Shown piece after piece: positions 8,575 through 40,763 of a DNA stretch of 64,000 nt. The DNA lies in NCBI GenBank assembly GCA_020279385.1, contig GCA_020279385.1_4762.1. One strand, written 5' to 3'. Origin of the DNA: a phage. Every line of letters begins with the position of its first letter. Position 1 is the first letter of the stretch. The notes beneath the pieces are model-generated. The model did no database searches and had not been told where the DNA came from. It worked only from the letters and a program-made list of their open reading frames with translations. Both the position numbers and the translations under genes were made by a program.

Positions 8575-10044
8575 CTATTCCCCATTGCCATTATACTTTC
8601 TTTGCTTAGTTATCCACACTCTAACCATCTCTACTGATTCACCGTCAGACGGATCAAGAGTTTTTCCTTTTTTCTTCATGCGGTACTTAAATCCGTTAAA
8701 TCTTGCATTCTCTTGCTCGTTAAAGTCGAACATCTTTTTAAATGATTTTCGCCCTTTACGCTCACCGCATTCTAGCGGAATCATTCGGTCTGTTATTACA
8801 TTGGCATCAGGTAGAAACGTTTTTAGATAATCTACCAACGCCCAATCAGGAACATATAGATTAACATTCTCCTTGCTCTCGTTGTCTCTCAGGTTACAAC
8901 GCAAACATAATTGAAATGCTGGTTCCAGATAATCAGACACATGACGCGCTTTCAAAAACTCGTTTGTTGGGAGATCGCAACTATTAGCAAGACCTTTTAA
9001 AATATCAATCTCCCATCGTTGAGGGTTAAAGCTGAACATCACAGCAACATTTTTATGATGAATGTAAGAGTTAAGACCATAAGATCCGTAAGGTATCCGC
9101 TCACCAATACCATTTGTGCACGCTTCTCGGTCCCGATTAACGGTATAAATGAAGTCATCGCCACATTCATTTTTAACCATATCAACAAGACGTTCAAAGG
9201 TATTGTTTGTTTCTGACTGGTGACGCGACCAGCGTTCGGAGTCAGTCATAAGGATGATGTTAACTCTATCTGTATTTTTATACTCTTTGAAATATAGTCT
9301 GGATTCTAGCGCACTCGGAACAAAATCGCAATTTGCATAGTATCGTAGATACTTCCCGCTATATGTATCAAAGAGATTTGCACATGCTATCGTAACCTTT
9401 TTAAAGTCTCCCCACGTACCGTGTTTGTTATCGTTCAAGAAAACAATTTTCGACCCATTCTTCCGGTGTCCTTCGTTATGTTTTACCATAACGTTGATTT
9501 TCTTCTCTAATAACGCCTCATAAAGCCCTCTAAGAGAAGAATCGATCATATCAGTACCATCCTTTGCACTTTCTATCTTTTCTTTGATAGCGGCCTTCTC
9601 AGAGTCTTTTAGAACTAAGTTCTGTAGGCATTCCGATTCGTCGGCGATTGGTTCGCAATGCTTCGTGATAAGTTCAAGATTAGACTTAAACGGATACTCA
9701 TTAAATTCAACCAGTTGAGGAACTTCATCAATGTAAAGAGCATAATCACCAAACATTTTTGAACGTTCCATATTAGATAACGCTGTATGTGTAATGAATA
9801 TCACATCAGCACCGTCTTTAACTGATTGCATTATCGACGCTTGCACTGTCTTAAGGCTTCTTAGTCTGGTGCTATCAATCAAGACAGCACGACCGCCCAT
9901 TCTTTTAAACTTATTGTAAGATTGTTCACTTAAAACACGAGATGGCGAAGCAATAACCGCTTTTTCTTTTGTCTCTAGGACGTGGGAAAGTATAGCATCA
10001 GTTTTCCCCGCCGCTGGCAATGCGATTAATGTTTCAATCTTCAT
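8575..10044 (-). CDS. P-loop NTPase of unknown family (helicase/nuclease-like?)
   Basis: 489 aa; Walker A LPAAGKTD at residues 9-16, Walker B YIDEVP about residue 110; no T4 counterpart recognised. Confidence 0.75.
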   Translation of the reverse strand: MKIETLIALPAAGKTDAILSHVLETKEKAVIASPSRVLSEQSYNKFKRMGGRAVLIDSTRLRSLKTVQASIMQSVKDGADVIFITHTALSNMERSKMFGDYALYIDEVPQLVEFNEYPFKSNLELITKHCEPIADESECLQNLVLKDSEKAAIKEKIESAKDGTDMIDSSLRGLYEALLEKKINVMVKHNEGHRKNGSKIVFLNDNKHGTWGDFKKVTIACANLFDTYSGKYLRYYANCDFVPSALESRLYFKEYKNTDRVNIILMTDSERWSRHQSETNNTFERLVDMVKNECGDDFIYTVNRDREACTNGIGERIPYGSYGLNSYIHHKNVAVMFSFNPQRWEIDILKGLANSCDLPTNEFLKARHVSDYLEPAFQLCLRCNLRDNESKENVNLYVPDWALVDYLKTFLPDANVITDRMIPLECGERKGRKSFKKMFDFNEQENARFNGFKYRMKKKGKTLDPSDGESVEMVRVWITKQRKYNGNGE

Positions 10045-10500: not shown

Positions 10501-10770
10501 TCAATAATCATAAATCGCCCTCAGTTCTTTATAGCCTCCAATGTGCTCGTTGTCAATGAATATCTGGGGGTATACAAACCGGAGGCTCTTTGAGTTTAGC
10601 CTCCCCGCCAGTTCTTCAATCATATCACGGTCGGGAATAATGTCAACCCCGACCTGCTTGAATACTGGTTTAAGTGTATACGGAATACCCAGATCATCCA
10701 GTAGCTTCATTGCACTAATACAACCATAACAATGATAAGCCTCTTTCGGTATACCGTATATCTCGATCAT
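10501..10770 (-). CDS. nrdH: Glutaredoxin-like protein (NrdH-like)
   Basis: 89 aa, CYGC redox motif, C-terminal YPQIFIDNEHIGGY glutaredoxin signature. Confidence 0.8.
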   Translation of the reverse strand: MIEIYGIPKEAYHCYGCISAMKLLDDLGIPYTLKPVFKQVGVDIIPDRDMIEELAGRLNSKSLRFVYPQIFIDNEHIGGYKELRAIYDY

Positions 10771-11249
10771 TTCTCAGCCTTTAATCTTTCTAGTTCTTCT
10801 TCCAGTTCCTTGATCCGTTGGTCACGTTCAAAGTCACGCTGTAACTTAGTGGCAAATACTCGCTTAAACTGATTGTAATCATCGATTTTAAACACTTCTT
10901 CTTCGCCATAGCGACGCACAGAAACTTCGTAGTTATTGAAGAATTGTTGCATCATTGCATCAGTAGTCAGTTCTGACGACACCACTTTAAAATAACGTTC
11001 TTCTGATTGCAAAAACCAGTTGTGCGCGTATTCCCGTACATCATCAACATTGCGGCAGGGGTATACCGTGCCATCAATTTCAATCACAGAAACATAATCG
11101 ATATCTGGTTCATGGCGATCAAACGCAATAACTTTAAATGGACGGTCTCCGATAAACTCTGCTATTGCATCATTTGCAACGCTAGAGTTTGCAAAATCTT
11201 CTCTCGTTTTATAATCTTTCCACTGATAGGTCATACCAACAACAAACAT
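10767..11249 (-). CDS. Paralog family A protein (MxWExGKTY family)
   Basis: Shares FANSS..A..IGDRPFKV core and C-terminal coiled coil with next three genes; start reset to ATG 11249 after GAGG. Confidence 0.6.
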   Translation of the reverse strand: MFVVGMTYQWKDYKTREDFANSSVANDAIAEFIGDRPFKVIAFDRHEPDIDYVSVIEIDGTVYPCRNVDDVREYAHNWFLQSEERYFKVVSSELTTDAMMQQFFNNYEVSVRRYGEEEVFKIDDYNQFKRVFATKLQRDFERDQRIKELEEELERLKAEK

Positions 11250-11250
11250 A

Positions 11251-11799
11251 TTACCAACCTCGCTCTTCACCAATCAAAAATTCAACTTCACGACGTTTAA
11301 TATCTTCTTGAAGGTCTTTAATCTTCTGGCGATCTTGCATGATTTCGTCCATCTTGTCAAGTGCTGCAATAAAATCATCGAAACGTTCAAAGGTTTTACC
11401 TTCATTTGCTTCGCCAAATTTAACCATTGTCAGACCATAACGACTACTAAACAGACGTTTCAACTGTCCAACGATCTTAGAATCATCGTTCACCTTTTCT
11501 TCTGGTTCTTTCACTGTTTCAACTTCACGAAAGAATTTTCTATCGAATGGACTAAAGAAATATGTTGCAGTCCAAATGTCTTTTCCTGTAGCAGTTTTCG
11601 CCGTATGATAAACACCGTCTAGCTCTATTGCATCAATCCATCCGTTACCCTCGATCTCGATGATGGTAAATGGCTTGTCACCAATAGCTGCACTAATATC
11701 GCTGTTAAGTGGAGAAAGAACACCTTCTCCGTTAGTAATAAACTCAGTTTTAGCGTTTTCATCTTTCCAAGTGTAAGTTTTACCAATTTCCCATTTCAT
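11251..11799 (-). CDS. Paralog family A protein
   Basis: MKWEIGKTYTWKD...; tandem paralog. Confidence 0.65.
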   Translation of the reverse strand: MKWEIGKTYTWKDENAKTEFITNGEGVLSPLNSDISAAIGDKPFTIIEIEGNGWIDAIELDGVYHTAKTATGKDIWTATYFFSPFDRKFFREVETVKEPEEKVNDDSKIVGQLKRLFSSRYGLTMVKFGEANEGKTFERFDDFIAALDKMDEIMQDRQKIKDLQEDIKRREVEFLIGEERGW

Positions 11800-11811
11800 A
11801 ATATATTCCCC

Positions 11812-12276
11812 TTAACCGATTTTATCAAGTTCGTTTAATGCTTTCTCTGCTTCCTGTATAGCTTGCACCCTTTCCGGCATTTTGTCAAGAAAATCTTTCA
11901 ACTCTTCAAAACTGGAGATATGACGCAAGGCGTTAGCACCGATAGCCGCATGTGATTTGCATTCAAAGCGGATTTTATAATTATCCATCGCCAACTTGAG
12001 AAGATCAATTAATTTAGATTCTTCTGGAATAATAATTTCTTCAAATCTGCTACGGTCATGATCCAGAAACCAACAAGATAGACCTACATCGGTTGAACTC
12101 ATATAAGTTCCATCATGAAGATAAACAGACCGCACGTATCCTTTTTTCGCATCAACCGACGCAACTTTAAACGGTAATCTCAGATATTTCAAATAATCAA
12201 CATCATACCATTTAAAAAATTGGTTTGCATCTTTTACATCTTTCCACGCATAGGTCTTACCAGCTTCCCATTTCAT
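11812..12276 (-). CDS. Paralog family A protein
   Basis: MKWEAGKTYAWKD... from ATG 12276. Confidence 0.6.
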   Translation of the reverse strand: MKWEAGKTYAWKDVKDANQFFKWYDVDYLKYLRLPFKVASVDAKKGYVRSVYLHDGTYMSSTDVGLSCWFLDHDRSRFEEIIIPEESKLIDLLKLAMDNYKIRFECKSHAAIGANALRHISSFEELKDFLDKMPERVQAIQEAEKALNELDKIG

Positions 12277-12280
12277 AATA

Positions 12281-12808
12281 TCATCTCTCATTTTTGATAC
12301 GTGATTCTAATTGGATCATACGGTCGCGCGTTTGTTTGTATTCTCGGATAGCACCGATCCGGCTAGGCATACCATCCAGTACGCTCTTAATACCTTCTAG
12401 GGTAGTAATTTTGGCAATGCTATTATGTAACCCCATCTTATCGATCAACTGAATGTCGTAGGCTTCCATAAGCAGACCCAGTCGTTCTAAAGTTAGGTCT
12501 TCTTCTTTTTCTTCCGAATCTGGAATCTTAGGTTCAATAGTAACTTCGGTAAAGAAACGACGCTCACCTGCCCAAAACCACACGCCGGAACAGCCAATAG
12601 GGGATTCTTTTAACGTCATAGAGTCGAAATTACTACCAATAATAGTAATTTCTCTAACATCACCATCATCGTCAAGGTCTTCTACCCTAAACGGGCGACC
12701 AGCCAACAAGTCAACAATACATCTGTTAATAGACGACGAAAATTTAGTCAGTTCGGCTTTCGACGCTTCGCATTCAATCTTGTAAGTTTTACCAACTTCC
12801 CATTCCAT
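12281..12808 (-). CDS. Paralog family A protein
   Basis: MEWEVGKTYKIE... from ATG 12808 after GAGGTG. Confidence 0.65.
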   Translation of the reverse strand: MEWEVGKTYKIECEASKAELTKFSSSINRCIVDLLAGRPFRVEDLDDDGDVREITIIGSNFDSMTLKESPIGCSGVWFWAGERRFFTEVTIEPKIPDSEEKEEDLTLERLGLLMEAYDIQLIDKMGLHNSIAKITTLEGIKSVLDGMPSRIGAIREYKQTRDRMIQLESRIKNER

Positions 12809-12818
12809 AATAATCACC

Positions 12819-13322
12819 TCAAATAATTTTCACTGGAATACTATTAACAATCTTGTATTGTACTTGATTGTCAGACCCCCGCCACGGCTTCTTCGTTGGC
12901 ATATCTTTAATATAACGACCATCTATGAACATGTCAACTGATTCTACAATTTTTCTTTGCTCATCATTCAATTGGTCAAGGGTATAACCGGACCATAGCC
13001 AAATATCTTTATTTGGCATCCATGATTTTACTTCATCGATGATCCGCTGTACACCCTTTAAATTGCGTTTATACAGTGGATCGCCACCTAAGAATGTTAG
13101 CCCCTGAATAAAATCAGGTCTAAGCAGATCCAGAATCAATCCCATTGTATCATCTGTGAATGGTTCCCCGTTCTTAGGATTGAGTAGACTGGAATTAAAG
13201 CAACCATCACATGCGTGTGAACATCCGGTAACGTAAAGGGAGACTCTCACTCCCTCACCGTTAACCATATCACAATCTTTAATATCGGCATAGCGTAGTT
13301 TGCCGTATGTATCAGAACTCAT
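12819..13322 (-). CDS. nrdG: Anaerobic ribonucleotide reductase activating protein NrdG (radical SAM)
   Basis: CSHACDGC CxxxCxxC motif, GGDPL, WRGSDNQV as in T4 NrdG. Confidence 0.9.
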   Translation of the reverse strand: MSSDTYGKLRYADIKDCDMVNGEGVRVSLYVTGCSHACDGCFNSSLLNPKNGEPFTDDTMGLILDLLRPDFIQGLTFLGGDPLYKRNLKGVQRIIDEVKSWMPNKDIWLWSGYTLDQLNDEQRKIVESVDMFIDGRYIKDMPTKKPWRGSDNQVQYKIVNSIPVKII

Positions 13323-13464
13323 ATTCAATTACCCCGAACTCGTTTACAATCTGCGCTTTATAGTAACCACCGCGAGATGCTAATAGATAAGCTGGGCTTA
13401 GGTATTCGTATTCACGGATTTCTACTTGTGCGTTTTCAGTTTCCCAAATCAGTAAAGTCCACAT
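13312..13464 (-). CDS. Possible small ORF (49 aa) overlapping nrdG start
   Basis: ATG 13464 downstream of promoter 13507-13535 and SD GGAGAA; MWTLLIWETENAQVEIREYEY... Confidence 0.25.
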   Translation of the reverse strand: MWTLLIWETENAQVEIREYEYLSPAYLLASRGGYYKAQIVNEFGVIEYEF

Positions 13465-13506
13465 GTTCGATTCTCCTGTAAAGTTGTATCTCGTCTTGAT
13501 GAATAT

Positions 13507-13535
13507 AGTATAGGGGATCTCGCGATCCCCGTCAA
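13507..13535 (-). promoter_or_regulatory. Early promoter TTGACG-[GGGATCGCGAGATCCCC]-TATACT
   Basis: Palindrome fills spacer; upstream of nrdG. Confidence 0.5.
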
Positions 13536-13539
13536 GCGT

Positions 13540-14073
13540 TTATTTTAAATTTTTTCGAATGTATTCAGACCATTCCTTCCCTGTCATTTCGGACCCGTTC
13601 TGGAAACTGAAATATTCATACGGCATCGAGTCAAGATAAAACAGGATCATACATCGCGCCATATAATACCAATCACGATTAAAGTAAACTACGTTATCAC
13701 CAGTACCATCAGCACCTTTATCATAACCATCTCGGGTACGGGCGACCCATTGAATAGTATCATTTTTCTCACGGATAGTCACAGGTTCCCAATATCCAGC
13801 ACATCCAGCATGACCACACGAACAAGTAAGGAAATATTGCCCTTTTGCTTTGTTGTCATCCCATTCACGATGGATTGGTTCGATCTCGTGAAACAGTGCC
13901 AAACAATCATGATTATGCAACACTGGCTTACCATCAATCAATGCATGGAATGTATACAAACGACCAGTAGACAAATAGCTATCCTCGCGCTCACAGAGTT
14001 CAATAGCAATCTTTTTAGCTCGTTCTTTGTGTCGTTGTGCTTTACGTTTACGGTTTAATGATTTCATAGTCAC
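13540..14073 (-). CDS. Hypothetical protein (Cys-cluster CSCGHAGC)
   Basis: 177-aa ORF between nrdD and nrdG (mobD position in T4, no HEG motifs seen). Confidence 0.55.
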   Translation of the reverse strand: MTMKSLNRKRKAQRHKERAKKIAIELCEREDSYLSTGRLYTFHALIDGKPVLHNHDCLALFHEIEPIHREWDDNKAKGQYFLTCSCGHAGCAGYWEPVTIREKNDTIQWVARTRDGYDKGADGTGDNVVYFNRDWYYMARCMILFYLDSMPYEYFSFQNGSEMTGKEWSEYIRKNLK

Positions 14074-14084
14074 CTCACATTATT

Positions 14085-14489
14085 TCAAAGATCGCGATAT
14101 TGTACATTATGAAAATGAGAACTTGCATTACCAATATTGTAGATAATAAATTCTTCATCCGGCGCTTGCGCTACAAATTGAGTATGAGCAACCGCCACAA
14201 CCTTAAAAATACGATCCGTGATCTTGTGTTTAATTTCTGCCCCTACTTCCATAGGAACATATTCATTTGTTTCTGTTTCAGTCGCAAAACAGCCATCTTC
14301 TTCATAAGCACGAACAAATCGGTCGCAATCAGTACGCTTAACAAATTCAAGAGTATATAATTCTCGTGAATTGTCGGTATAGACCAATACAGAATTATTA
14401 TGATAGCGAATCACATACAGGTTATTATCATCGTCAATTACGCAAAAGCTACGGATTCCTTCGCCTTGACTCCAGCAGATATTAACCAC
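14085..14489 (-). CDS. Hypothetical protein
   Basis: 134-aa ORF, GTG start after GAGGAACG. Confidence 0.5.
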   Translation of the reverse strand: MVNICWSQGEGIRSFCVIDDDNNLYVIRYHNNSVLVYTDNSRELYTLEFVKRTDCDRFVRAYEEDGCFATETETNEYVPMEVGAEIKHKITDRIFKVVAVAHTQFVAQAPDEEFIIYNIGNASSHFHNVQYRDL

Positions 14490-14651
14490 CGTTCCTCTAA
14501 TAAAAAACTTTCCTTTAAATTAAAACTAGTCAATGTGCTAGCGTGCATTTTAACAACAACACCATCGCCAATTTCCAGTTTACGAAGTTTAACTTCTTTG
14601 CTCAGTACACAAAACATCATCATGTTGTCCTCTCTTTGTTTCGATGTGAGC

Positions 14652-14679
14652 ATTATACATGAGCTAATCATGTTGTCAA
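14652..14679 (-). promoter_or_regulatory. Early promoter TTGACA-N16-TATAAT
   Basis: Immediately downstream of nrdD terminator. Confidence 0.5.
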
Positions 14680-14685
14680 CACCCC

Positions 14686-14717
14686 AAAACGAAAAAGCCG
14701 ACCCTTTCGGATCGGCT
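14686..14717 (-). terminator. Intrinsic terminator after nrdD
   Basis: GCCGATCC-GAAA-GGGTCGGC hairpin plus UUUUUCGUUUU. Confidence 0.65.
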
Positions 14718-14722
14718 AAAAA

Positions 14723-16585
14723 TTACATGTGCTTAACGCGGTTTACCATCTCGGAGTGTTTCCCGTGGTTAAATGGACGCAGATCAACAGATCCAAGATA
14801 TCCACTAACGCGACGGATAACATTCATATTTTCCAGATTGTCATTTCCGCAATCAGGGCAAACAAAACCCAACTCGGTCGCTCTCATTTCCTTATTAGAT
14901 CCGCATACATGACATACATCAGAAGGAGTATTAACACCGAAGTAGTGCAATTTATCCATTGCATAGTCTACTACAGTTTCAAGACCTTTCAGGTTGTTTT
15001 TCATGTCTGGGAACTCAACATAAGAGATCATGCCACCGGACGCCAGCCAGTGATAATCTTTCTCAAAGTCGATTTTCTCAAATGGTGTGACTTTCCGGTC
15101 TACGTCAAGGTGGAATGAGTTGGTGTACCAGTCTTTATCGGTAGCACCCTTAACAATACCAAATTGCGCTCGGTCCAGTCGATTAAATCGATAGCAAAGG
15201 CTCTCGGCTGGCGTACCGTAAAGACTAAACCCAAGTCCGGTTTCATCCTTCCATTTTTCAGTATAATGACGCAAGATCTTAAGAATATGTTTACCGTATC
15301 GCTGCGCATCTTCCGAATCAAACGGATGAACACCAAACAGGACGCTCAATACCTCATGTAAACCAATATATCCAAGAGAGATACTAGCGCGACCATCTTT
15401 CAACACTTCCAAAATTTCATCGTTTTGATGAATACGGAAAAATGCACCTTCTGTATACAGCACCGGAGCAACATTGGCTTTAGCCCCTTTTAAAGCGTCT
15501 ACGCGACTCATGAGCGCATCAAAACAAATAGGCATACGATTAGCTAGCTCTTGTTCGAATAGCTCAATTCTGCGCATTACAGACGCTTTACCAGCACGAC
15601 GCGCGGCAATAATGGCAATACGCGGAAGATTTAGAGTCACAACACCTAAGTTATTACGTCCGTCTAATACTTCTTCGCCTTTCTCATTATGCCACACACC
15701 CAGGAAGCTACGACAACCCATCGGGCTAACCGGAACACTAGATCCGGTGATACTACGGTTATTCTTCGCAGAGATATAATCAGGGTAAAGACGCTTACTA
15801 GAACATTCCAATGCAAGTTGCTTAATGTCGTAGTTCGGATCTTCCGGTTTAAGGTTTAATCCTTCTTCTAAGAACATCACCAGCTTAGGAAACACCGGAG
15901 TGATACCATCTTTACCTAAACCTTTAGTTCGAACTTTCAGGATCGCTTTCTGAATCAGTTTTTCTTCCCAGCTAGTCCCCATACCAAAGGTTAAAGTCAC
16001 AAAAGGCGTTTGACCGTTGGTGGAGAACAAAGTGTTGATCTCATATTCCAACGCCTGATATCCGTCTAGCGTTTCTTTTTCTGTCTTCTCTTGTGCATAG
16101 AGAGTATCAGCTTTGATTCCGTAGGTTTCGGCATCAGCAAGGTGTTTATGATATGTTTTCTCAACGTATGGCGCTAAAACCTGATCGATGTTTGCAATTG
16201 TGGTCCCTCCATATTGATGACTCGCCACCTGTGCGATAATTTGAGCGGTTACAGCACATGCAACACCGATCGATTTCGGACTTTCGATTTGTGCGCTACC
16301 CAATTTAAAACCATTCTCTAACATGTCTTTGAGATTAACAAGACAGCAGTTAGTAAACGGCATAGCGGGTGCATAATCCATATCATGATAATGAATGTCA
16401 CCGTCTACATGCGCTTTATAGATGTGCTCAGGTAACACGGTTTTAGCAATCTGTTTAGACACAGCACCAGCAATCAGATCTCGACGTGTCGGGAATGTTC
16501 GCGCGTCTTTGTTCGCGTTCTCTTTGCTTACTTCGTTTTCTTTACCCGTTGCGATCTCTGTAATGTCTTTGATTAGTTTTTCCAT
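14723..16585 (-). CDS. nrdD: Anaerobic ribonucleoside-triphosphate reductase NrdD
   Basis: 620 aa, C-terminal glycyl-radical motif RRVSGYLG and Zn-ribbon CHVCGS..CPDCG. Confidence 0.95.
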   Translation of the reverse strand: MEKLIKDITEIATGKENEVSKENANKDARTFPTRRDLIAGAVSKQIAKTVLPEHIYKAHVDGDIHYHDMDYAPAMPFTNCCLVNLKDMLENGFKLGSAQIESPKSIGVACAVTAQIIAQVASHQYGGTTIANIDQVLAPYVEKTYHKHLADAETYGIKADTLYAQEKTEKETLDGYQALEYEINTLFSTNGQTPFVTLTFGMGTSWEEKLIQKAILKVRTKGLGKDGITPVFPKLVMFLEEGLNLKPEDPNYDIKQLALECSSKRLYPDYISAKNNRSITGSSVPVSPMGCRSFLGVWHNEKGEEVLDGRNNLGVVTLNLPRIAIIAARRAGKASVMRRIELFEQELANRMPICFDALMSRVDALKGAKANVAPVLYTEGAFFRIHQNDEILEVLKDGRASISLGYIGLHEVLSVLFGVHPFDSEDAQRYGKHILKILRHYTEKWKDETGLGFSLYGTPAESLCYRFNRLDRAQFGIVKGATDKDWYTNSFHLDVDRKVTPFEKIDFEKDYHWLASGGMISYVEFPDMKNNLKGLETVVDYAMDKLHYFGVNTPSDVCHVCGSNKEMRATELGFVCPDCGNDNLENMNVIRRVSGYLGSVDLRPFNHGKHSEMVNRVKHM

Positions 16586-16629
16586 TGTATCACCTATGAA
16601 AAAGCGGGATTTCTCCCGCTCGTTGATAG

Positions 16630-17124
16630 TTATTTTACCAGTTCTGCTAATTCTTTTTCCGCCGCTTCCAGTTCAGCTTTCAGTTGTTTGATCTCTTGTC
16701 GCTTCTTATTAGCGGCTTCCTGCTTACTATTTCGGATAATCTGATCTAGATATGAATCCCACTCCTGAATATTTTTGATAATGTAACCGTCAACATTAAT
16801 TGGTCGGAGATTTAGTACAGCTTCCAGTTTAGTTGCAAAAACTTTAATTGCTGGTGTGAAGTATTCATACTCGTTATCTTCAAACCAATAACCTAGACTT
16901 GCATTATCAATACGAAGACGAAGTTTAAGATCAAGGTCTTTATCTTCGGTGTAAAGATCTTTCACCTGCCCCATCGAGCTAACAACAACTTTAAAACGAA
17001 TTTTATCTACACCGCCAAAAACATCTTCAAGAATATCAGCAATTGAGCTATTAGCGCAAGATTGGTCGCTGAATGCGTCAAGATTTTCTTTAGTTACAGT
17101 ATACCAAATATCTTGTTTCCACAT
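16630..17124 (-). CDS. Paralog family A-like protein
   Basis: CANSSIADILEDVFGGVDKIRFKV core plus C-terminal coiled coil; conserved RBS GAGGATTATATTATG. Confidence 0.6.
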   Translation of the reverse strand: MWKQDIWYTVTKENLDAFSDQSCANSSIADILEDVFGGVDKIRFKVVVSSMGQVKDLYTEDKDLDLKLRLRIDNASLGYWFEDNEYEYFTPAIKVFATKLEAVLNLRPINVDGYIIKNIQEWDSYLDQIIRNSKQEAANKKRQEIKQLKAELEAAEKELAELVK

Positions 17125-17154
17125 AATATAATCCTCTCGTTGTTAAGTGGGAGT

Positions 17155-17182
17155 ATTATAGCATACTCCCTTTGCATGTCAA
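17155..17182 (-). promoter_or_regulatory. Early promoter TTGACA-N16-TATAAT with GGGAGTAT/ATACTCCC hairpin around -10
   Basis: Upstream of 16630-17124. Confidence 0.5.
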
Positions 17183-18357
17183 GCACCAACTTTTTTCTTT
17201 ACTGCTTTCACCTTCTGGCGAATTGCTCGAATCTCTTCGATCTCTTTTTCAGTCTCTTTAACAATTTCTTTGCGATTCTGAATATCTGTATCGAGATTAT
17301 CATCAAGTTTAGGCAGCATGTCAATCAAGAACTTTTTAAGGTCTTTCAGGTTTCGGATAACAGCACCTTCACCCATTACCGCAACACCAACACCATCCGG
17401 CAGATCACCAAACAGTTTAACCAGTTCAGACAGATGATCATGGTCTTCTAATGCTTCCTCCGGTTCAGATGGCAGTTCAACAAAGTTATAACGTTCATCA
17501 TTGCTGATCAAGTGATACCAGCAAAGCCCGAAAGATTTCGGTGTATATTCTACACCATCAATTTCAACCGCGTCAACACTTCCATAATCATCTACTTTAG
17601 TTACCTTAAATCCTTGTCCCAGCTTTTGAACAATTTCAACAACATGACTTGATACAGTTTCAGCGGTAAACCAATATGGCAAATTATGCTGATTTGGCTT
17701 GTAGCGTTCACCTACTTTAAATCTCTGACCATCCGCTTGCATAGAATGAAATTGTTGTTTCGTGATTTCCGCGAAGTATTCAAATTCGCCACCATCAAAC
17801 ACACAAGCCCATTGATCACAAAAACGATCTGCCTTAACAGTTTCACCTTTCGCGGTGATCATGGTAGCCGATCCATGAAATTCTTCTTCAACTAAAAAGC
17901 CATATTCGACAAAATCAACAAGTTTCATAGCTTCTTTGTGGTCTGGATCATGCTCTCCCCAGAATCGCTTAAATTCTTGCAAACCTTCTGGGGTAAACGA
18001 ATAACATTTACCTTTTTCAAAGTAAGTCGGCATTGCATCCTCTTTCTTGTTCATCGCTTCGTATGCCTCTTTTGAGATGCGTTTAAAGTATTTACGCTCA
18101 TTGTGCATAATCATAGTGGCCCAATAATCAACAATATCATTAGCGGAATAAACTACATCTCCAGCTTCAATAGTAATAACATGACCGTGGTCATCTTTTT
18201 CTAATACTTTAAAGCCCTTTTCTACGATTTCAGCAACCCGAATATGACCACGGCGCGAAGCATCGGTCAGAATAATTGAATAGCGAGAAAAGTCTAGAAA
18301 CTCATCTTTACCGCCTTCACGGAATGCATAGTAATGACCTTCAAAGAATTTAGCCAT
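17179..18357 (-). CDS. Paralog family B protein (internally duplicated, 392 aa)
   Basis: Contains two copies of the ...ERKYFKRI... module found in next two genes. Confidence 0.65.
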   Translation of the reverse strand: MAKFFEGHYYAFREGGKDEFLDFSRYSIILTDASRRGHIRVAEIVEKGFKVLEKDDHGHVITIEAGDVVYSANDIVDYWATMIMHNERKYFKRISKEAYEAMNKKEDAMPTYFEKGKCYSFTPEGLQEFKRFWGEHDPDHKEAMKLVDFVEYGFLVEEEFHGSATMITAKGETVKADRFCDQWACVFDGGEFEYFAEITKQQFHSMQADGQRFKVGERYKPNQHNLPYWFTAETVSSHVVEIVQKLGQGFKVTKVDDYGSVDAVEIDGVEYTPKSFGLCWYHLISNDERYNFVELPSEPEEALEDHDHLSELVKLFGDLPDGVGVAVMGEGAVIRNLKDLKKFLIDMLPKLDDNLDTDIQNRKEIVKETEKEIEEIRAIRQKVKAVKKKVGA

Positions 18358-18387
18358 AATATAATCCTCTCGTTGTTAAGTGGGAGT

Positions 18388-18416
18388 ATCTTACTACTCC
18401 CGTTTCATCATGTCAA
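18388..18416 (-). promoter_or_regulatory. Early promoter TTGACA-N17-TAAGAT with GGGAGTA/TACTCCC palindrome
   Basis: Upstream of 17179-18357. Confidence 0.45.
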
Positions 18417-18979
18417 GCGTTAAATGACTTTTGGATCTCTTTCAGTTCAGCTACTTTATCGGCGCTGAATTTAGCGTAGGTATCATGTCGAATAATTTCA
18501 CTTTCAAGAAAGGTTTCCAGCCGAGATCTATTTTCAATAAGGAACTCTTTCAGGTCTTCCGCGTTCTTGATAAAGATTTTATTGTCAGTAATGTCATCTT
18601 CAATCGCAAAGGAGATAGAGCGAACTTTACCAAACAAGTTAATCAGATCTTCCAGCGATTCTTCTTTCTTAACTGGTTTCATTTCTTCAAACTGCTTTTT
18701 AGTGATTCGTTTAAAGTATTTGCGCTCGCTTGCGTCAATCATGATTGACGCGCCCTCATAATCATGAGTTTCTACCAAATACACTTTACCCATAACATTA
18801 ACCGTAAGAACTTTAAAGCCCCTGTGAAGCACACCATACAGGAACTTGTTATGTTGTGGATAGCGTTTGATAAATTCCTCTGCGGACTCAGCATTACGGA
18901 AAGTGTAATAACGACCTCGTTCAAAAACAGCATCATTTGAAGACTTAGCTGGATACAATTTATACGTTTTCTGTACCAT
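18413..18979 (-). CDS. Paralog family B protein
   Basis: MVQKTYKLY... from ATG 18979 with GAGGATTATATT RBS; ERKYFKRITKKQFEEMK motif. Confidence 0.6.
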   Translation of the reverse strand: MVQKTYKLYPAKSSNDAVFERGRYYTFRNAESAEEFIKRYPQHNKFLYGVLHRGFKVLTVNVMGKVYLVETHDYEGASIMIDASERKYFKRITKKQFEEMKPVKKEESLEDLINLFGKVRSISFAIEDDITDNKIFIKNAEDLKEFLIENRSRLETFLESEIIRHDTYAKFSADKVAELKEIQKSFNA

Positions 18980-18993
18980 AATATAATCCTCTA

Positions 18994-19266
18994 TCATTTC
19001 ACTAATTGAACAGCACGAAACAGAATGCGGTCACACGGAAGAAGCATAAATTCCCAACGCGGATCAAAGTCTTTAGCGGTATATGTTTTCCCATCAACCG
19101 AGATTTCACTTACATAACCAATAGGTGACACTTTAAGAACAGTAAACCCATTCTTGATGACTTCGTAGGTATCTTTCAATCCTTCGTAGTCATCCTCTAG
19201 GAAGTCTTTACGTGCTTGCTCAGATTTAAAAACATAGGCCACACCGGATTTAAACATCTTACGCAT
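18994..19266 (-). CDS. Paralog family B short member
   Basis: MRKMFKSGVAYVFKSEQARKDF... from ATG 19266 after AAGGAGAATCAA. Confidence 0.5.
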   Translation of the reverse strand: MRKMFKSGVAYVFKSEQARKDFLEDDYEGLKDTYEVIKNGFTVLKVSPIGYVSEISVDGKTYTAKDFDPRWEFMLLPCDRILFRAVQLVK

Positions 19267-19297
19267 TGTTGATTCTCCTTCTTGATTAGATGGGAGT

Positions 19298-19326
19298 ATT
19301 TTACTACTCCCATTTCTTATTGTCAA
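19298..19326 (-). promoter_or_regulatory. Early promoter TTGACA-N17-TAAAAT with GGGAGTA/TACTCCC palindrome
   Basis: Upstream of 18994-19266. Confidence 0.45.
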
Positions 19327-19329
19327 CTA

Positions 19330-19803
19330 CTATCTTAATCTTTGTATAAATTGTTTCTTATACTTCTTCGTGATCTCTTCTCTTGTATCCGCGTCACAGT
19401 AATCGAAACCTTCTGCGTCCATAATAGCAACCATCTCCGAGCGTGTCAAGCGTGAAAATCGTTTTACTTTATCAACAGCATATTGAGGATGTAAATGATT
19501 GTTGGTGTAGTCTCCTTTGATGTAATTAACATAGTTTGTAGCCCAAACAACGAAATCAGCACCTAAAGCACCAACACCAAACCGTTTAAAGTCTCCGGTC
19601 AACGATCCTTCTAGGCGGTTGCAACACGAATGAAGCAATCCCCTTACGCGGCCTTGCCCTTTCCCATCTAGATCATGATCATGGTCAAGATGGTTTTTGC
19701 TCATATCCTCAAAAAGTGGCAATTGACAAAGGGGGCAAATGCCCCCCTGTTTTTCGAATAGTTCTTGTTTATACTCTTTAGCACTCTTAGCAGTCAGTAA
19801 CAT
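19330..19803 (-). CDS. 49: Endonuclease VII (Holliday junction resolvase) gp49
   Basis: 157 aa from ATG 19803; CPLC..HLDHDHDL..GKGQGRVRGLLHSCCN matches T4 endo VII. Confidence 0.9.
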   Translation of the reverse strand: MLLTAKSAKEYKQELFEKQGGICPLCQLPLFEDMSKNHLDHDHDLDGKGQGRVRGLLHSCCNRLEGSLTGDFKRFGVGALGADFVVWATNYVNYIKGDYTNNHLHPQYAVDKVKRFSRLTRSEMVAIMDAEGFDYCDADTREEITKKYKKQFIQRLR

Positions 19804-19827
19804 AAATTCACCCTCCAAAGAAGGTAT

Positions 19828-23606: not shown

Positions 23607-23885
23607 TTACATGTCTTGCAGTGCATAAAAGCATTTTTCTTCATAGTCATAGAAAATGTCAAAGTATGCTTTTTCCACATACTCGCCATTAATCCAAGCG
23701 GCAGTAACAATCAGAGTGGTCCAGTTAGATCCGCTCTCAACGGTAAAGGTTTTAATACCCAGCTTCGCTGCCAAGTCGAACGCAAACCGGACGCAACCAC
23801 GGCAGGAAGTGATATTGGAAGTTTTTATTTTAAAGCCACCGCGAGTTTTAGAAATTTCTACTTTAGCGAAAGACAGGTTGCTCAT
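23607..23885 (-). CDS. Hypothetical protein
   Basis: 92-aa ORF with GGAGAATCAAA RBS and promoter 23928-23956. Confidence 0.55.
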   Translation of the reverse strand: MSNLSFAKVEISKTRGGFKIKTSNITSCRGCVRFAFDLAAKLGIKTFTVESGSNWTTLIVTAAWINGEYVEKAYFDIFYDYEEKCFYALQDM

Positions 23886-23927
23886 TTTGATTCTCCTTAA
23901 GAAAGTGTGTTTCGTTTTGATGTGTGT

Positions 23928-23956
23928 AGTATAGGGGATACGTGATCCCCTGTCAA
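23928..23956 (-). promoter_or_regulatory. Early promoter TTGACA-[GGGGATCACGTATCCCC]-TATACT
   Basis: Palindromic spacer. Confidence 0.5.
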
Positions 23957-23964
23957 CAATTTTT

Positions 23965-24228
23965 TTATGATTTTAGTGAATTAACCACTACATCAAAATG
24001 ATGTACAGAGCACACCCTACGAAACACATATTCATCATGTTTCGGAATCGCCCCCAACCGCTTTATTTCGCTCGCTGACACGATAAACCGTTTATCAGGT
24101 GCATTTACCTTATATGCTTCAACAACGCACGGAAAACGCGTTTTAGAGAGTTCGGGATAGTTTTCTGACTCCATCAGGACAATGAATACCCTATTACATT
24201 GATTGTAGAATCCGGTTTTTGATTTCAT
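23965..24228 (-). CDS. Hypothetical protein
   Basis: ORF; start ambiguous (overlaps upstream ORF in ORF-track coordinates). Confidence 0.35.
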   Translation of the reverse strand: MKSKTGFYNQCNRVFIVLMESENYPELSKTRFPCVVEAYKVNAPDKRFIVSASEIKRLGAIPKHDEYVFRRVCSVHHFDVVVNSLKS

Positions 24229-36196: not shown

Positions 36197-36535
36197 TCAC
36201 ACCTTTAAAGTCATAGACGCATAAACATTAATGCCAGGCCAGTTAGGATCGCAATTATACTCAACATCCCACAAATAAAGCGGTTTAGATGTATCAGCCA
36301 AGTTTTTAAAATCTTCTACCCACATTTCAAGGCTATATGATGGATAAACTAGGCTATCATATCCGCCGTAACGTTGGCCTACTGGTCGGTCAGTAAAAAC
36401 TACATCAAGATCCGGTAATTCTTTTTCAAGGATAACCACCAGCGCATAAATCAGACGGTCTTCCTTGTTACGCTGCCGAAGGACCGTTGTCAGTTGGTTT
36501 TTCTGGTTCACTAGCAAGCACCTCCACATTTTCAC
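36197..36535 (-). CDS. Hypothetical protein
   Basis: 112-aa ORF. Confidence 0.45.
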   Translation of the reverse strand: MKMWRCLLVNQKNQLTTVLRQRNKEDRLIYALVVILEKELPDLDVVFTDRPVGQRYGGYDSLVYPSYSLEMWVEDFKNLADTSKPLYLWDVEYNCDPNWPGINVYASMTLKV

Positions 36536-36788
36536 AGAATGAAATTTTCACAGACACAATTTTACCATAAGTGAAGAATGAATATACATTATCGATATAT
36601 TCAACGTCACCTACAATCACATCAAACTGCGGATCAGCAACCGCCGCAACATATTCTACCAGTTCATCAAGAGAATGCAACTTAATTTCATCAATTCGGC
36701 TGTATTTGGTTGCATCTTTAATTTTAAAACCACGTTCTTTCAGTTTGTCAATCAGAATTTCACGCGGAGTTTCAAACAGTTTGCTCAT
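36468..36788 (-). CDS. Hypothetical protein
   Basis: 106-aa ORF. Confidence 0.45.
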   Translation of the reverse strand: MSKLFETPREILIDKLKERGFKIKDATKYSRIDEIKLHSLDELVEYVAAVADPQFDVIVGDVEYIDNVYSFFTYGKIVSVKISFCENVEVLASEPEKPTDNGPSAA

Positions 36789-36810
36789 AGTATAATCCTC
36801 ACATAGTTAA

Positions 36811-40348: not shown

Positions 40349-40726
40349 TTAAGAATATTTTACTTCGTCTACAATGTCTTTCATGACATTGATTTCCATT
40401 CCGGTCAGAACACGTTGGAACATGTGCTGCACATACGCTTTCAGGTATTCATTTGATGGCTTGCTATCGAAAGTCTTTTTAGTGTAGTAGTCATCACCGA
40501 AAGCTACTGTAATTATATTTTCGTCGTCGTTCCAAGCGATATAAGCAAATTTGCCGTTATCCCAGAAGCGAGCACTAATTGCTACTTTTGTTGAATCGAA
40601 TCCTACTTCGCTGTGAGATTCAAGAACTACTTGCGTGCCAGTTTCTTTATGAATGTAGTAGCGGGATACTAAGTCAAAGTTACGGGTGTAGTGACATTCG
40701 AATTTATCTTTAAACATCATCATCAT
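40349..40726 (-). CDS. Hypothetical protein
   Basis: 125 aa; promoter 40764-40792. Confidence 0.55.
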   Translation of the reverse strand: MMMMFKDKFECHYTRNFDLVSRYYIHKETGTQVVLESHSEVGFDSTKVAISARFWDNGKFAYIAWNDDENIITVAFGDDYYTKKTFDSKPSNEYLKAYVQHMFQRVLTGMEINVMKDIVDEVKYS

Positions 40727-40763
40727 TTTGATTCTCCTAAGTGTGTTTCGTTTCTATGTGTGC

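Follow-up and report, generated by a model that had tools for sequence, protein, structure and literature searches.

The window analysed here is the whole of a 64,000-nucleotide stretch of phage DNA (contig GCA_020279385.1_4762.1). Between nrdH and gene 49 it carries an array of eight minus-strand genes, designated A1–A5 and B6–B8, which together encode ten copies of a related N-terminal domain (N-domain). Judging from sequence profiles, this array is a Krischvirus-specific tandem expansion, at a new genomic site, of the GoF/Frd.2/MotB.1 family of T4-type phage early proteins. The window phage itself is a Krischvirus, an RB49-like T4-type coliphage of the Straboviridae myovirus group; the taxonomy lines of the records place Krischvirus outside the subfamily Tevenvirinae. 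The 8.9-kb stretch around the array shows 95–97% nucleotide identity to Escherichia phage RB49 and to more than 50 other Krischvirus genomes, the value for RB49 being about 96–97%, and the gene order as in RB49 is kept across 59 Krischvirus records. On the minus strand, this order is gene 55, a 489-amino-acid (aa) open reading frame (ORF), 55.2, nrdH (10501–10770), the A1–A4 block, nrdG (12819–13328), three small ORFs, nrdD (14723–16585), the A5–B8 block, gene 49 (19330–19818), and nrdC. The GC content is uniform across the locus, at about 40%.

A1 (10767–11249, 160 aa), the orthologue of RB49p048, has an ATG start preceded by a ribosome-binding site. It is composed of an N-domain, encoded at about 10962–11249, and a C-terminal helix-strand-strand-helix part, and it matches phrog_5347 with an E-value of 1.3e-55 and the N-domain profile with 84 bits. 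A2 (11251–11799, 182 aa) has a single N-domain and matches phrog_5347 and the N-domain profile as well. A3 (11812–12276, 154 aa) matches the same two profiles with an E-value of 1.7e-59 and 61 bits, respectively, and A4 (12281–12808, 175 aa), whose N-domain covers about residues 1–94, was the protein chosen for modelling. The E-values of all four against phrog_5347 range from 1e-50 to 4e-66. In the second block, A5 (16630–17124, 164 aa; phrog_15067) is a distant member whose N-domain carries an insertion ahead of the RFKV strand. The likely start codons of A1–A5 (ATG at 11249, 11799, 12276, 12808, and 17124) were chosen from the ribosome-binding sites and the RB49 annotation, and they fall slightly inside the longest ORFs.

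B6 (17179–18357, 392 aa) is the largest protein of the array and matches phrog_8944 with an E-value of 3.5e-213. Its three N-domain matches of 52–64 bits correspond to tandem N-domains encoded at 18046–18357, 17734–18045, and 17443–17733, which are followed by the common C-terminal part at 17179–17442 (profile E-value of 4.7e-26). The RB49 annotation of B6 is "frd.2 / goF mRNA metabolism modulator", and RefSeq labels B6 and B7 so. B7 (18413–18979, 188 aa) consists of a basic N-domain and the common C-terminal part, whereas B8 (18994–19266, 90 aa; phrog_16115, E-value of 9.8e-63) is an N-domain alone, matching the N-domain profile with 73 bits.

The initial annotation of the window had described A1–A5 as a family of five paralogs. 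These five ORFs are indeed present on the minus strand at the positions given above and are true homologues. In pairwise BLASTP, A1–A4 are significantly similar over their full length, with 23–29% identity; the best pairwise E-values are 2.6e-12 for A3 and A4, 4e-11 for A1 and A2, and 8.5e-9 for A2 and A4. A5 is placed in the family by profiles, but not by pairwise BLASTP, in which no significant similarity was observed. When all window ORFs of 40 aa or more (625) were scanned with a 93-sequence N-domain profile free of A5-like sequences, A5 scored 37.4 bits (E-value of 8.4e-11). Furthermore, when the A5 subfamily was compared with the other members profile to profile, the probability was 98.4% and the E-value 4e-15. 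Against the A1–A4 profile, A5 is not significant (E-value of 1.7), and B6, B7, and B8 match that profile at better E-values than A5. In other words, the local expansion is real, but it is larger than the five genes first listed, from which B6, B7, and B8 had been missed. The motifs that had been taken as common to the five need similar correction. The M(K/E)WExGKTY motif is literal in A2–A4, whereas A1 starts with MFVVGMTY and A5 with MWKQDIWY; the "ANSS" block is found in A1 and A5 but is absent from the other flagged genes.

Beyond the eight array genes, no other window ORF was significant in the N-domain profile scans. The ORFs at 36471–36806, 40352–40753, and 23610–23972 (E-values of 0.05–0.07) were weak candidates and were rejected as members. 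The scan of the whole RB49 genome gave the same eight genes and Dc2, that is, nine genes with twelve N-domains. Dc2 (RB49p021, 211 aa; RB49 NC_005066 11993–12628) matches the N-domain profile with an E-value of 1.8e-8 and lies directly upstream of the gene 41 helicase. A relationship of Dc2 with the similarly placed gp61.2 of T4 was considered and rejected, as there was no similarity between them. It should be mentioned that the gene 41 mRNA is the transcript raised by GoF(D25Y) in T4, and that the position of Dc2 beside gene 41 is possibly a coincidence.

Predicted fold and family membership

All eight proteins have the N-domain of about 90 aa in common. In seven of them, it is followed by an acidic linker and by a C-terminal part in which a helix and two strands precede a long amphipathic helix. 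The AlphaFold2 model of A4, based on an alignment of 85 sequences, has a mean predicted local distance difference test score (pLDDT) of 82.8, with values of 79–95 in the blocks of the N-domain. In this model, residues 1–96 form a high-confidence SH3-like β-barrel with two helices (a hairpin) between strands 1 and 2, residues 97–107 form a disordered acidic linker (pLDDT below 50), and residues 110–177 fold into a helix and two short strands, with a 38-residue helix at the end. The terminal helix of the model, with its heptad-like pattern, agrees with the coiled coil that had been proposed earlier, but it is no proof of one. The best 21-residue windows are hydrophobic at four to six of the six a/d positions. 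The C-terminal part is homologous among A1–A4, B6, B7, and a few other phage proteins; that of A5 is weakly similar to those of A1–A4 (profile-profile probability of 64%).

The best solved-structure neighbour of the A4 model barrel is FeoA, and DtxR-type SH3 domains are also among the neighbours, with sequence identities of 12–15%. The Foldseek search of the PDB with the A4 model gave nothing significant, and neither did the profile search of the PDB sequences, in which the best match was RepX at an E-value of 0.043. On the basis of the model, the N-domain is shown to be an SH3-like barrel of the FeoA-like kind, which corresponds to the "LSm-like" barrel of Kim et al. (2025, PMC12152347). The Foldseek search of BFVD, which contains predicted viral protein structures, gave 68 matches at E-values of 1e-3 or below. 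Among the 50 or so best of these, nearly all are from T4-like phages, and those bearing a name are uncharacterised proteins, Dc2 of phage ECD7 being the sole named entry.

The GoF family was defined by Kim et al. (2025, PMC12152347) from AlphaFold3 models. Its members have an N-terminal barrel of "LSm-like"/SH3 topology, for which FeoA and DtxR/IdeR-type domains are the closest PDB structures, followed by a linker and variable C-terminal domains. The profile made from nine N-domains of the window recognised T4 GoF with 34 bits (E-value of 8.7e-10) and Frd.2 with 18.8 bits (E-value of 4.9e-5); the match to MotB.1 was weak, at 9.8 bits. The neighbouring T4 proteins cef, Frd.1, Frd.3, and MotB.2, used as negative controls, scored nothing with this profile. 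With a broader N-domain profile, the scores rose to 63 bits for GoF, 41 bits for Frd.2, and 26 bits for MotB.1. The exhaustive profile search of 1.84 billion representative proteins gave 84 matches, one of which is a GoF orthologue (P0098). Almost all of the 84 are proteins of 120–280 aa with the domain at the N-terminus, and some have two or three copies. Cross-matches in PHROGs were to the goF families phrog_8944, 13003, and 2980 ("goF mRNA metabolism modulator"). The named relatives and the BFVD matches belong to T4-like phages of Aeromonas, Edwardsiella, Proteus, Serratia, Providencia, Klebsiella, and others, and in a few cases to phAPEC8-like phages. Word-indexed homologue searches found close Krischvirus relatives only, and Pfam, NCBIfam, and Rfam gave no match above the cut-offs for the array proteins. 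In PADLOC there was no family-level match, and seven of the eight array proteins had no match. The remaining one, A5, aligned with HerA (15.1 bits, E-value of 0.0016; residues 4–146 on positions 308–445 of the 686-position profile), and this match is regarded as chance because nothing else on A5 supports HerA.

Because the profile matches and the family definition of Kim et al. fit, the array genes are assigned, at the level of sequence profiles, to the GoF/Frd.2/MotB.1 family and not to the LSm/Hfq or FeoA families. The array proteins and the T4 trio share the N-domain, with FeoA/DtxR-type structural neighbours of the predicted barrel, the arrangement of N-domain, flexible linker, and variable C-terminal part, the small size, the sigma-70-type promoters, and the restriction to large T4-like phages. 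They differ in that the helix-two strands-long helix C-terminal part of the array is undetectable in the T4 trio, that the array proteins carry one, two, or three tandem N-domains, and that eight genes are clustered here, whereas the three T4 genes are dispersed and lie at another genomic site. The SH3-like domains of FeoA and DtxR/IdeR resemble the N-domain in fold only; the array proteins differ from them in the inserted helical hairpin and in being encoded by a phage. No Pfam FeoA match was found in the eight proteins, and this phage early region is without feoB. The array proteins and Hfq/Sm-like proteins have in common the small bent antiparallel β-barrel, a comparison drawn in PMC12152347. 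The arrangement of an N-terminal helix and a five-stranded barrel with Sm/Hfq as the closest structures was not observed, however, and the eight proteins gave no Pfam LSM/Hfq match even at E-values up to 1. For the T4 proteins, the AlphaFold3 multimers in the same paper were without confidence. Kim et al. (2025, PMC12152347) make no mention of RB49, paralog arrays, or tandem domains. The array adds to this known family members with a distinct C-terminal part and with one, two, or three N-domains.

The genomic positions bear on the origin of the array. In the 61 kb of T4 that were scanned, the nrdH-nrdG-nrdD-49 region has no family member; outside these 61 kb, the count of three T4 members rests on PMC12152347. 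RB49 (NC_005066 5000–6000) is without the T4 goF-cef-motB-motB.1-motB.2 block between gene 39 and dexA, and therefore Krischvirus is without a positional orthologue of goF or motB.1. RB49 also has no family member between frd and gene 32. Since the array is absent from the T4 site and the T4-type member sites are empty in RB49, the array is considered to be a lineage-specific expansion at a new site.

These positions also led us to consider whether the proteins assist the anaerobic ribonucleotide reductase or iron handling as accessory factors. A1–A4 lie between nrdG and nrdH with gaps of 1–12 nucleotides (nt), A5 directly adjoins nrdD, and FeoA is the best structural neighbour. However, the nrdH-nrdG-nrdD-49 region of T4 does without a family member, the three T4 members being elsewhere, and Dc2 of RB49 adjoins gene 41. 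In addition, the metal-binding histidines are absent according to Kim et al. (PMC12152347), and hypervariable N-domains, as described below, would be unexpected in partners of NrdD and NrdG, which are 99% conserved. A role of this kind is hardly credible.

Promoters and leader sequences

A promoter-early stem-loop (PeSL) cassette combines a sigma-70 consensus promoter with a stable stem-loop in an intergenic position of a hyperplastic region; such cassettes are known from RB49 and phi1 (Arbiol et al. 2010, PMC2839356). Upstream of A5 (17149–17182, minus strand), a PeSL-type promoter has TTGACA and TATAAT separated by 16 nt (12 of 12 consensus positions), and its –10 element is in the loop of GGGAGTA...TACTCCC. 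Promoter and stem-loop searches located PeSL-type early promoters with stem-loops also upstream of B6 (18382–18416, minus strand) and B8 (19292–19326, minus strand). All three are perfect or near-perfect sigma-70 promoters with the –10 element inside the stem-loop, followed by a conserved leader and a ribosome-binding site. The GGGAGTA...TACTCCC stem occurs three times in the 64-kb window and in none of 100 shuffles. As far as can be read from the DNA, the three array cassettes agree with the PeSL definition.

The stem-loop search found no PeSL between the genes of the A1–A4 block. This block is directly downstream of nrdG and its genes are only 1–12 nt apart; therefore, A1–A4 are probably co-transcribed with nrdG. 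No T4 late-promoter motif was found in the region of 10–20 kb of the window, and the array genes would be transcribed early, from sigma-70-type promoters.

The leader ACTTAACAACGAGAGGATTATATT is identical in A5 and B6, right before the ATG (17124–17160 and 18357–18393, minus strand). B7 has the last part of this leader, GAGGATTATATT-ATG (18979–19000, minus strand). The presence of a leader common to A5, B6, and partly B7 suggests that the translation-initiation region was duplicated together with the cassettes.

Variation between strains and proposed function

When the window was compared with RB49, Whisky, and UPWr_E1, the core proteins were 97–100% identical, with synonymous divergence (dS) of 0.01–0.19 and ratios of nonsynonymous to synonymous divergence (dN/dS) of 0.17 or below. 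The family genes were either about 99% or about 70% identical, because nearly all differences of the divergent alleles lie in the N-domain. In these alleles, the N-domain showed 47–60% identity, dS of 0.9–1.8, and dN/dS of 0.22–0.43, whereas the C-terminal part of the same gene showed 92–100% identity and dS of 0.06–0.36. Consistently, the low-identity blocks in a 75-nt identity map coincide with the segments coding for the N-domains. Over the 13–14 Krischvirus genomes and 35 metagenomic A4 orthologues, the amino-acid identity was 44–97% for the N-domain and 89–100% for the C-terminal part. The initial annotation had the C-terminal tails as the diversified part; between strains, it is the N-terminal domain that varies.

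Among 13–14 genomes, A1, A3, and A4 each have two or three N-domain allele classes and a single C-terminal class, A4 of ECD7 being the exception to the latter. For A3 in 13 genomes, two N-domain classes are combined with a C-terminal part that is 100% identical. The classes are 44–60% identical to each other with saturated dS, inside genomes that are otherwise about 99% identical. In 34 clusters of A4 orthologues from genomes and metagenomes, the N-domain shows 49–97% identity and the C-terminal part 89–100%, and the variable positions are spread over the surface of the N-domain while the core residues are fixed. Gene conversion from the paralogs was considered as a source of the alternative N-domain alleles and was rejected, since the alleles are 44–57% identical to their own locus and 28–37% identical to the paralogs. 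The orthologues of A3 in FL15 and of A1 in ELT4 are annotated as two short ORFs each, which indicates frameshifts or sequencing errors in some strains.

Exchange and copy-number change can both be seen at the level of domains. B7 of phage Whisky is the reverse case, in which the C-terminal part was swapped (65% identity) and the N-domain is 99% identical. A2 corresponds to RB49p049 minus its second N-domain: the difference is a clean in-frame indel of 92 aa bounded by the repeated DRKFFREVE, and apart from it A2 is 95–96% identical. In 11 of the 13 other genomes, the A2 orthologue has two domains (274–277 aa), whereas those of ELT4 and E26 have a single domain as in the window. All the sampled strains retain all eight array genes.

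An arms race had been proposed for the family, with dN/dS of the paralogs as the way to check it. Within the window, dN/dS between paralogs is not meaningful, because an amino-acid identity of 20–30% saturates the synonymous sites. Between strains, the orthologues gave no signature of positive selection: the highest pairwise dN/dS was 0.66, and the values were always below 1. The pooled ratio of nonsynonymous to synonymous polymorphism (pN/pS) was 0.21–0.29 in the N-domains and 0.00–0.09 in the C-terminal parts. Taken together, the sequence comparisons show domain-level exchange and duplication under purifying selection, and not rapid positive selection. The array shares with the PeSL shuffling of RB49 and phi1 (PMC2839356; Comeau et al. 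2014, PMC4122927) the phage group, the hyperplastic region, the cassettes, and the block replacement between strains. However, the shuffled unit there is a whole orphan gene between PeSLs, whereas here it is a protein domain within a gene, with conserved coding sequence on either side.

The old allele classes at one locus, the sigma-70-type promoters, and the hyperplastic setting are compatible with host interaction or balancing selection. This raises the question of whether the proteins are counter-defence factors or decoys, in which the N-domain alleles would neutralise variable host proteins, such as an immunity sensor or a nuclease, and would be kept by frequency-dependent selection across E. 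coli. Saturated dS between classes of 44–60% identity in genomes that are about 99% identical is the pattern expected under long-term balancing selection; copy number varies by domain, the promoters are of the sigma-70 type and the location is a hyperplastic region, and acidic surfaces would fit protein-binding or nucleic-acid-mimic proteins. Several observations do not agree with such a role. The pairwise dN/dS values reach 0.66 at most, neither PADLOC at the family level nor Pfam and NCBIfam above their cut-offs yielded a match, and the literature found on GoF as well as on Frd.2 and MotB.1 reports no anti-defence phenotype. Moreover, all eight genes are in all sampled strains, unlike many accessory anti-defence genes. 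We regard this explanation as possible, although not the favoured one.

The charge of the N-domains gives a further hint about their targets. Most of them are acidic, with isoelectric points (pI) of 4.4–4.9 and net charges of –6 to –10. That of B7 is basic (pI 9.5), and B8 and A3 have near-neutral ones. Protein targets are therefore favoured for most copies, and direct RNA binding by the array proteins is a minority possibility. The proteins might nevertheless be LSm/Hfq-like RNA chaperones, whose N-domains would bind RNA directly, perhaps as rings, with paralogs differing in RNA specificity. In Kim et al., the structural neighbours of the GoF N-domain include Hfq, GoF(D25Y) stabilises RNA, and the basic B7 and near-neutral B8 and A3 domains would suit such a function. 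With the acidic N-domains of most copies, this seems improbable.

The goF gene was found decades ago as a suppressor of host rho alleles. The barrel might in principle dock on RNA polymerase or Rho in the manner of the Tudor-/KOW-like domains of CarD, UvrD/PcrA, and NusG/Spt5, so that the array proteins would modulate transcription or its termination; we consider this very improbable. In T4, the effect of GoF(D25Y) is to stabilise a reporter mRNA after transcription, independently of Hfq (PMC12152347). T4 GoF is an early protein of about 20,000 copies per cell that runs as a monomer and a dimer. The experimental record of the relatives is limited to mRNA stability in the T4 goF mutant (PMC12152347). 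Wild-type GoF and MotB.1 have little effect, and the mutants plate normally. On the other hand, frd.2 was the only T4 gene of unknown function that was scored as fitness-relevant in a genome-wide CRISPRi-ART screen (PMC11879866).

Taken as a whole, we favour, with some reserve, the explanation that the array is a Krischvirus-specific expansion of the GoF family, whose products would be early dimeric binders that act post-transcriptionally and are diversified by domain swapping. The array proteins would be abundant and non-enzymatic, with the N-terminal barrel as the module that recognises the target and the long C-terminal helix as the part that dimerises the protein. By analogy with T4 GoF, they might act on mRNA fate, or on a host factor controlling it, during host takeover. 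Homology arms would be provided by the conserved coding segments of the C-terminal parts on either side of the N-domains, and through them N-domains could be swapped by ordinary phage recombination. N-domains are also gained or lost in frame at the DRKFFREVE boundary.

Several points weigh against this explanation. The pull-down of GoF recovered no dominant host partner. The acidic N-domains of most copies speak against direct RNA binding. Dimerisation is read from a monomer model and a heptad count. The early timing is deduced from promoter sequence.

More tentatively, and with little confidence, the swapping might be extended to binding specificity itself. The constant C-terminal part would then be a dimerising scaffold for interchangeable SH3-like heads directed at polymorphic host factors, for example immunity proteins or the RNA-decay machinery. 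Ancient allele classes of the heads would persist, in-frame multiplication would give each protein one, two, or three heads, and with the C-terminal coding segments as homology arms, the whole would be a cassette array needing no integrase. If this is true, the repertoire of heads would help decide which E. coli strains Krischvirus exploits. If, on the other hand, the proteins prove to be ordinary redundant early factors, the finding reduces to the correct annotation of eight hypothetical proteins.

The array is a natural experiment on the GoF family, with eight paralogs and ten heads. It provides natural material in the form of swapped N-domain alleles on constant C-terminal parts, as well as one-, two-, and three-domain versions. 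Near-isogenic phages differing in one N-domain allele could reveal the recognition target of this domain through their host range and the transcriptomes of infected cells. Furthermore, the whole-gene shuffling known in RB49-like phages is extended here to the shuffling of domains within genes.

Neighbouring genes

Other small ORFs lie between nrdG and nrdD. The ORFs at 13540–14073 (177 aa, phrog_8242) and 13312–13464 (50 aa), both on the minus strand, are conserved and unrelated to the family. The orthologue of RB49p055 (178 aa) is broken within 14085–14671 into the ORFs 14438–14671 and 14085–14489 (minus strand). The split is due to a 1-nt deletion near 14490, where a T run has six residues here and seven in RB49; a sequencing error in the homopolymer, a pseudogene, and a frameshift site are all conceivable.

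A strong intrinsic terminator, with a 9-bp stem containing six G-C pairs and a T-run, lies just after nrdD (14696–14717, minus strand). Immediately past it, a sigma-70 promoter matching the consensus at 12 of 12 positions (14652–14679, minus strand) precedes the RB49p055 orthologue. This terminator-promoter pair resembles a PeSL, but the stem differs.

On the other side of the array, the 489-aa ORF between gene 55 and 55.2 (8575–10044, minus strand) corresponds to the hypothetical protein RB49p044 and is 99% conserved among Krischvirus. A Walker-A-like stretch (ALPAAGKT) at its start suggests that it may be an NTPase.

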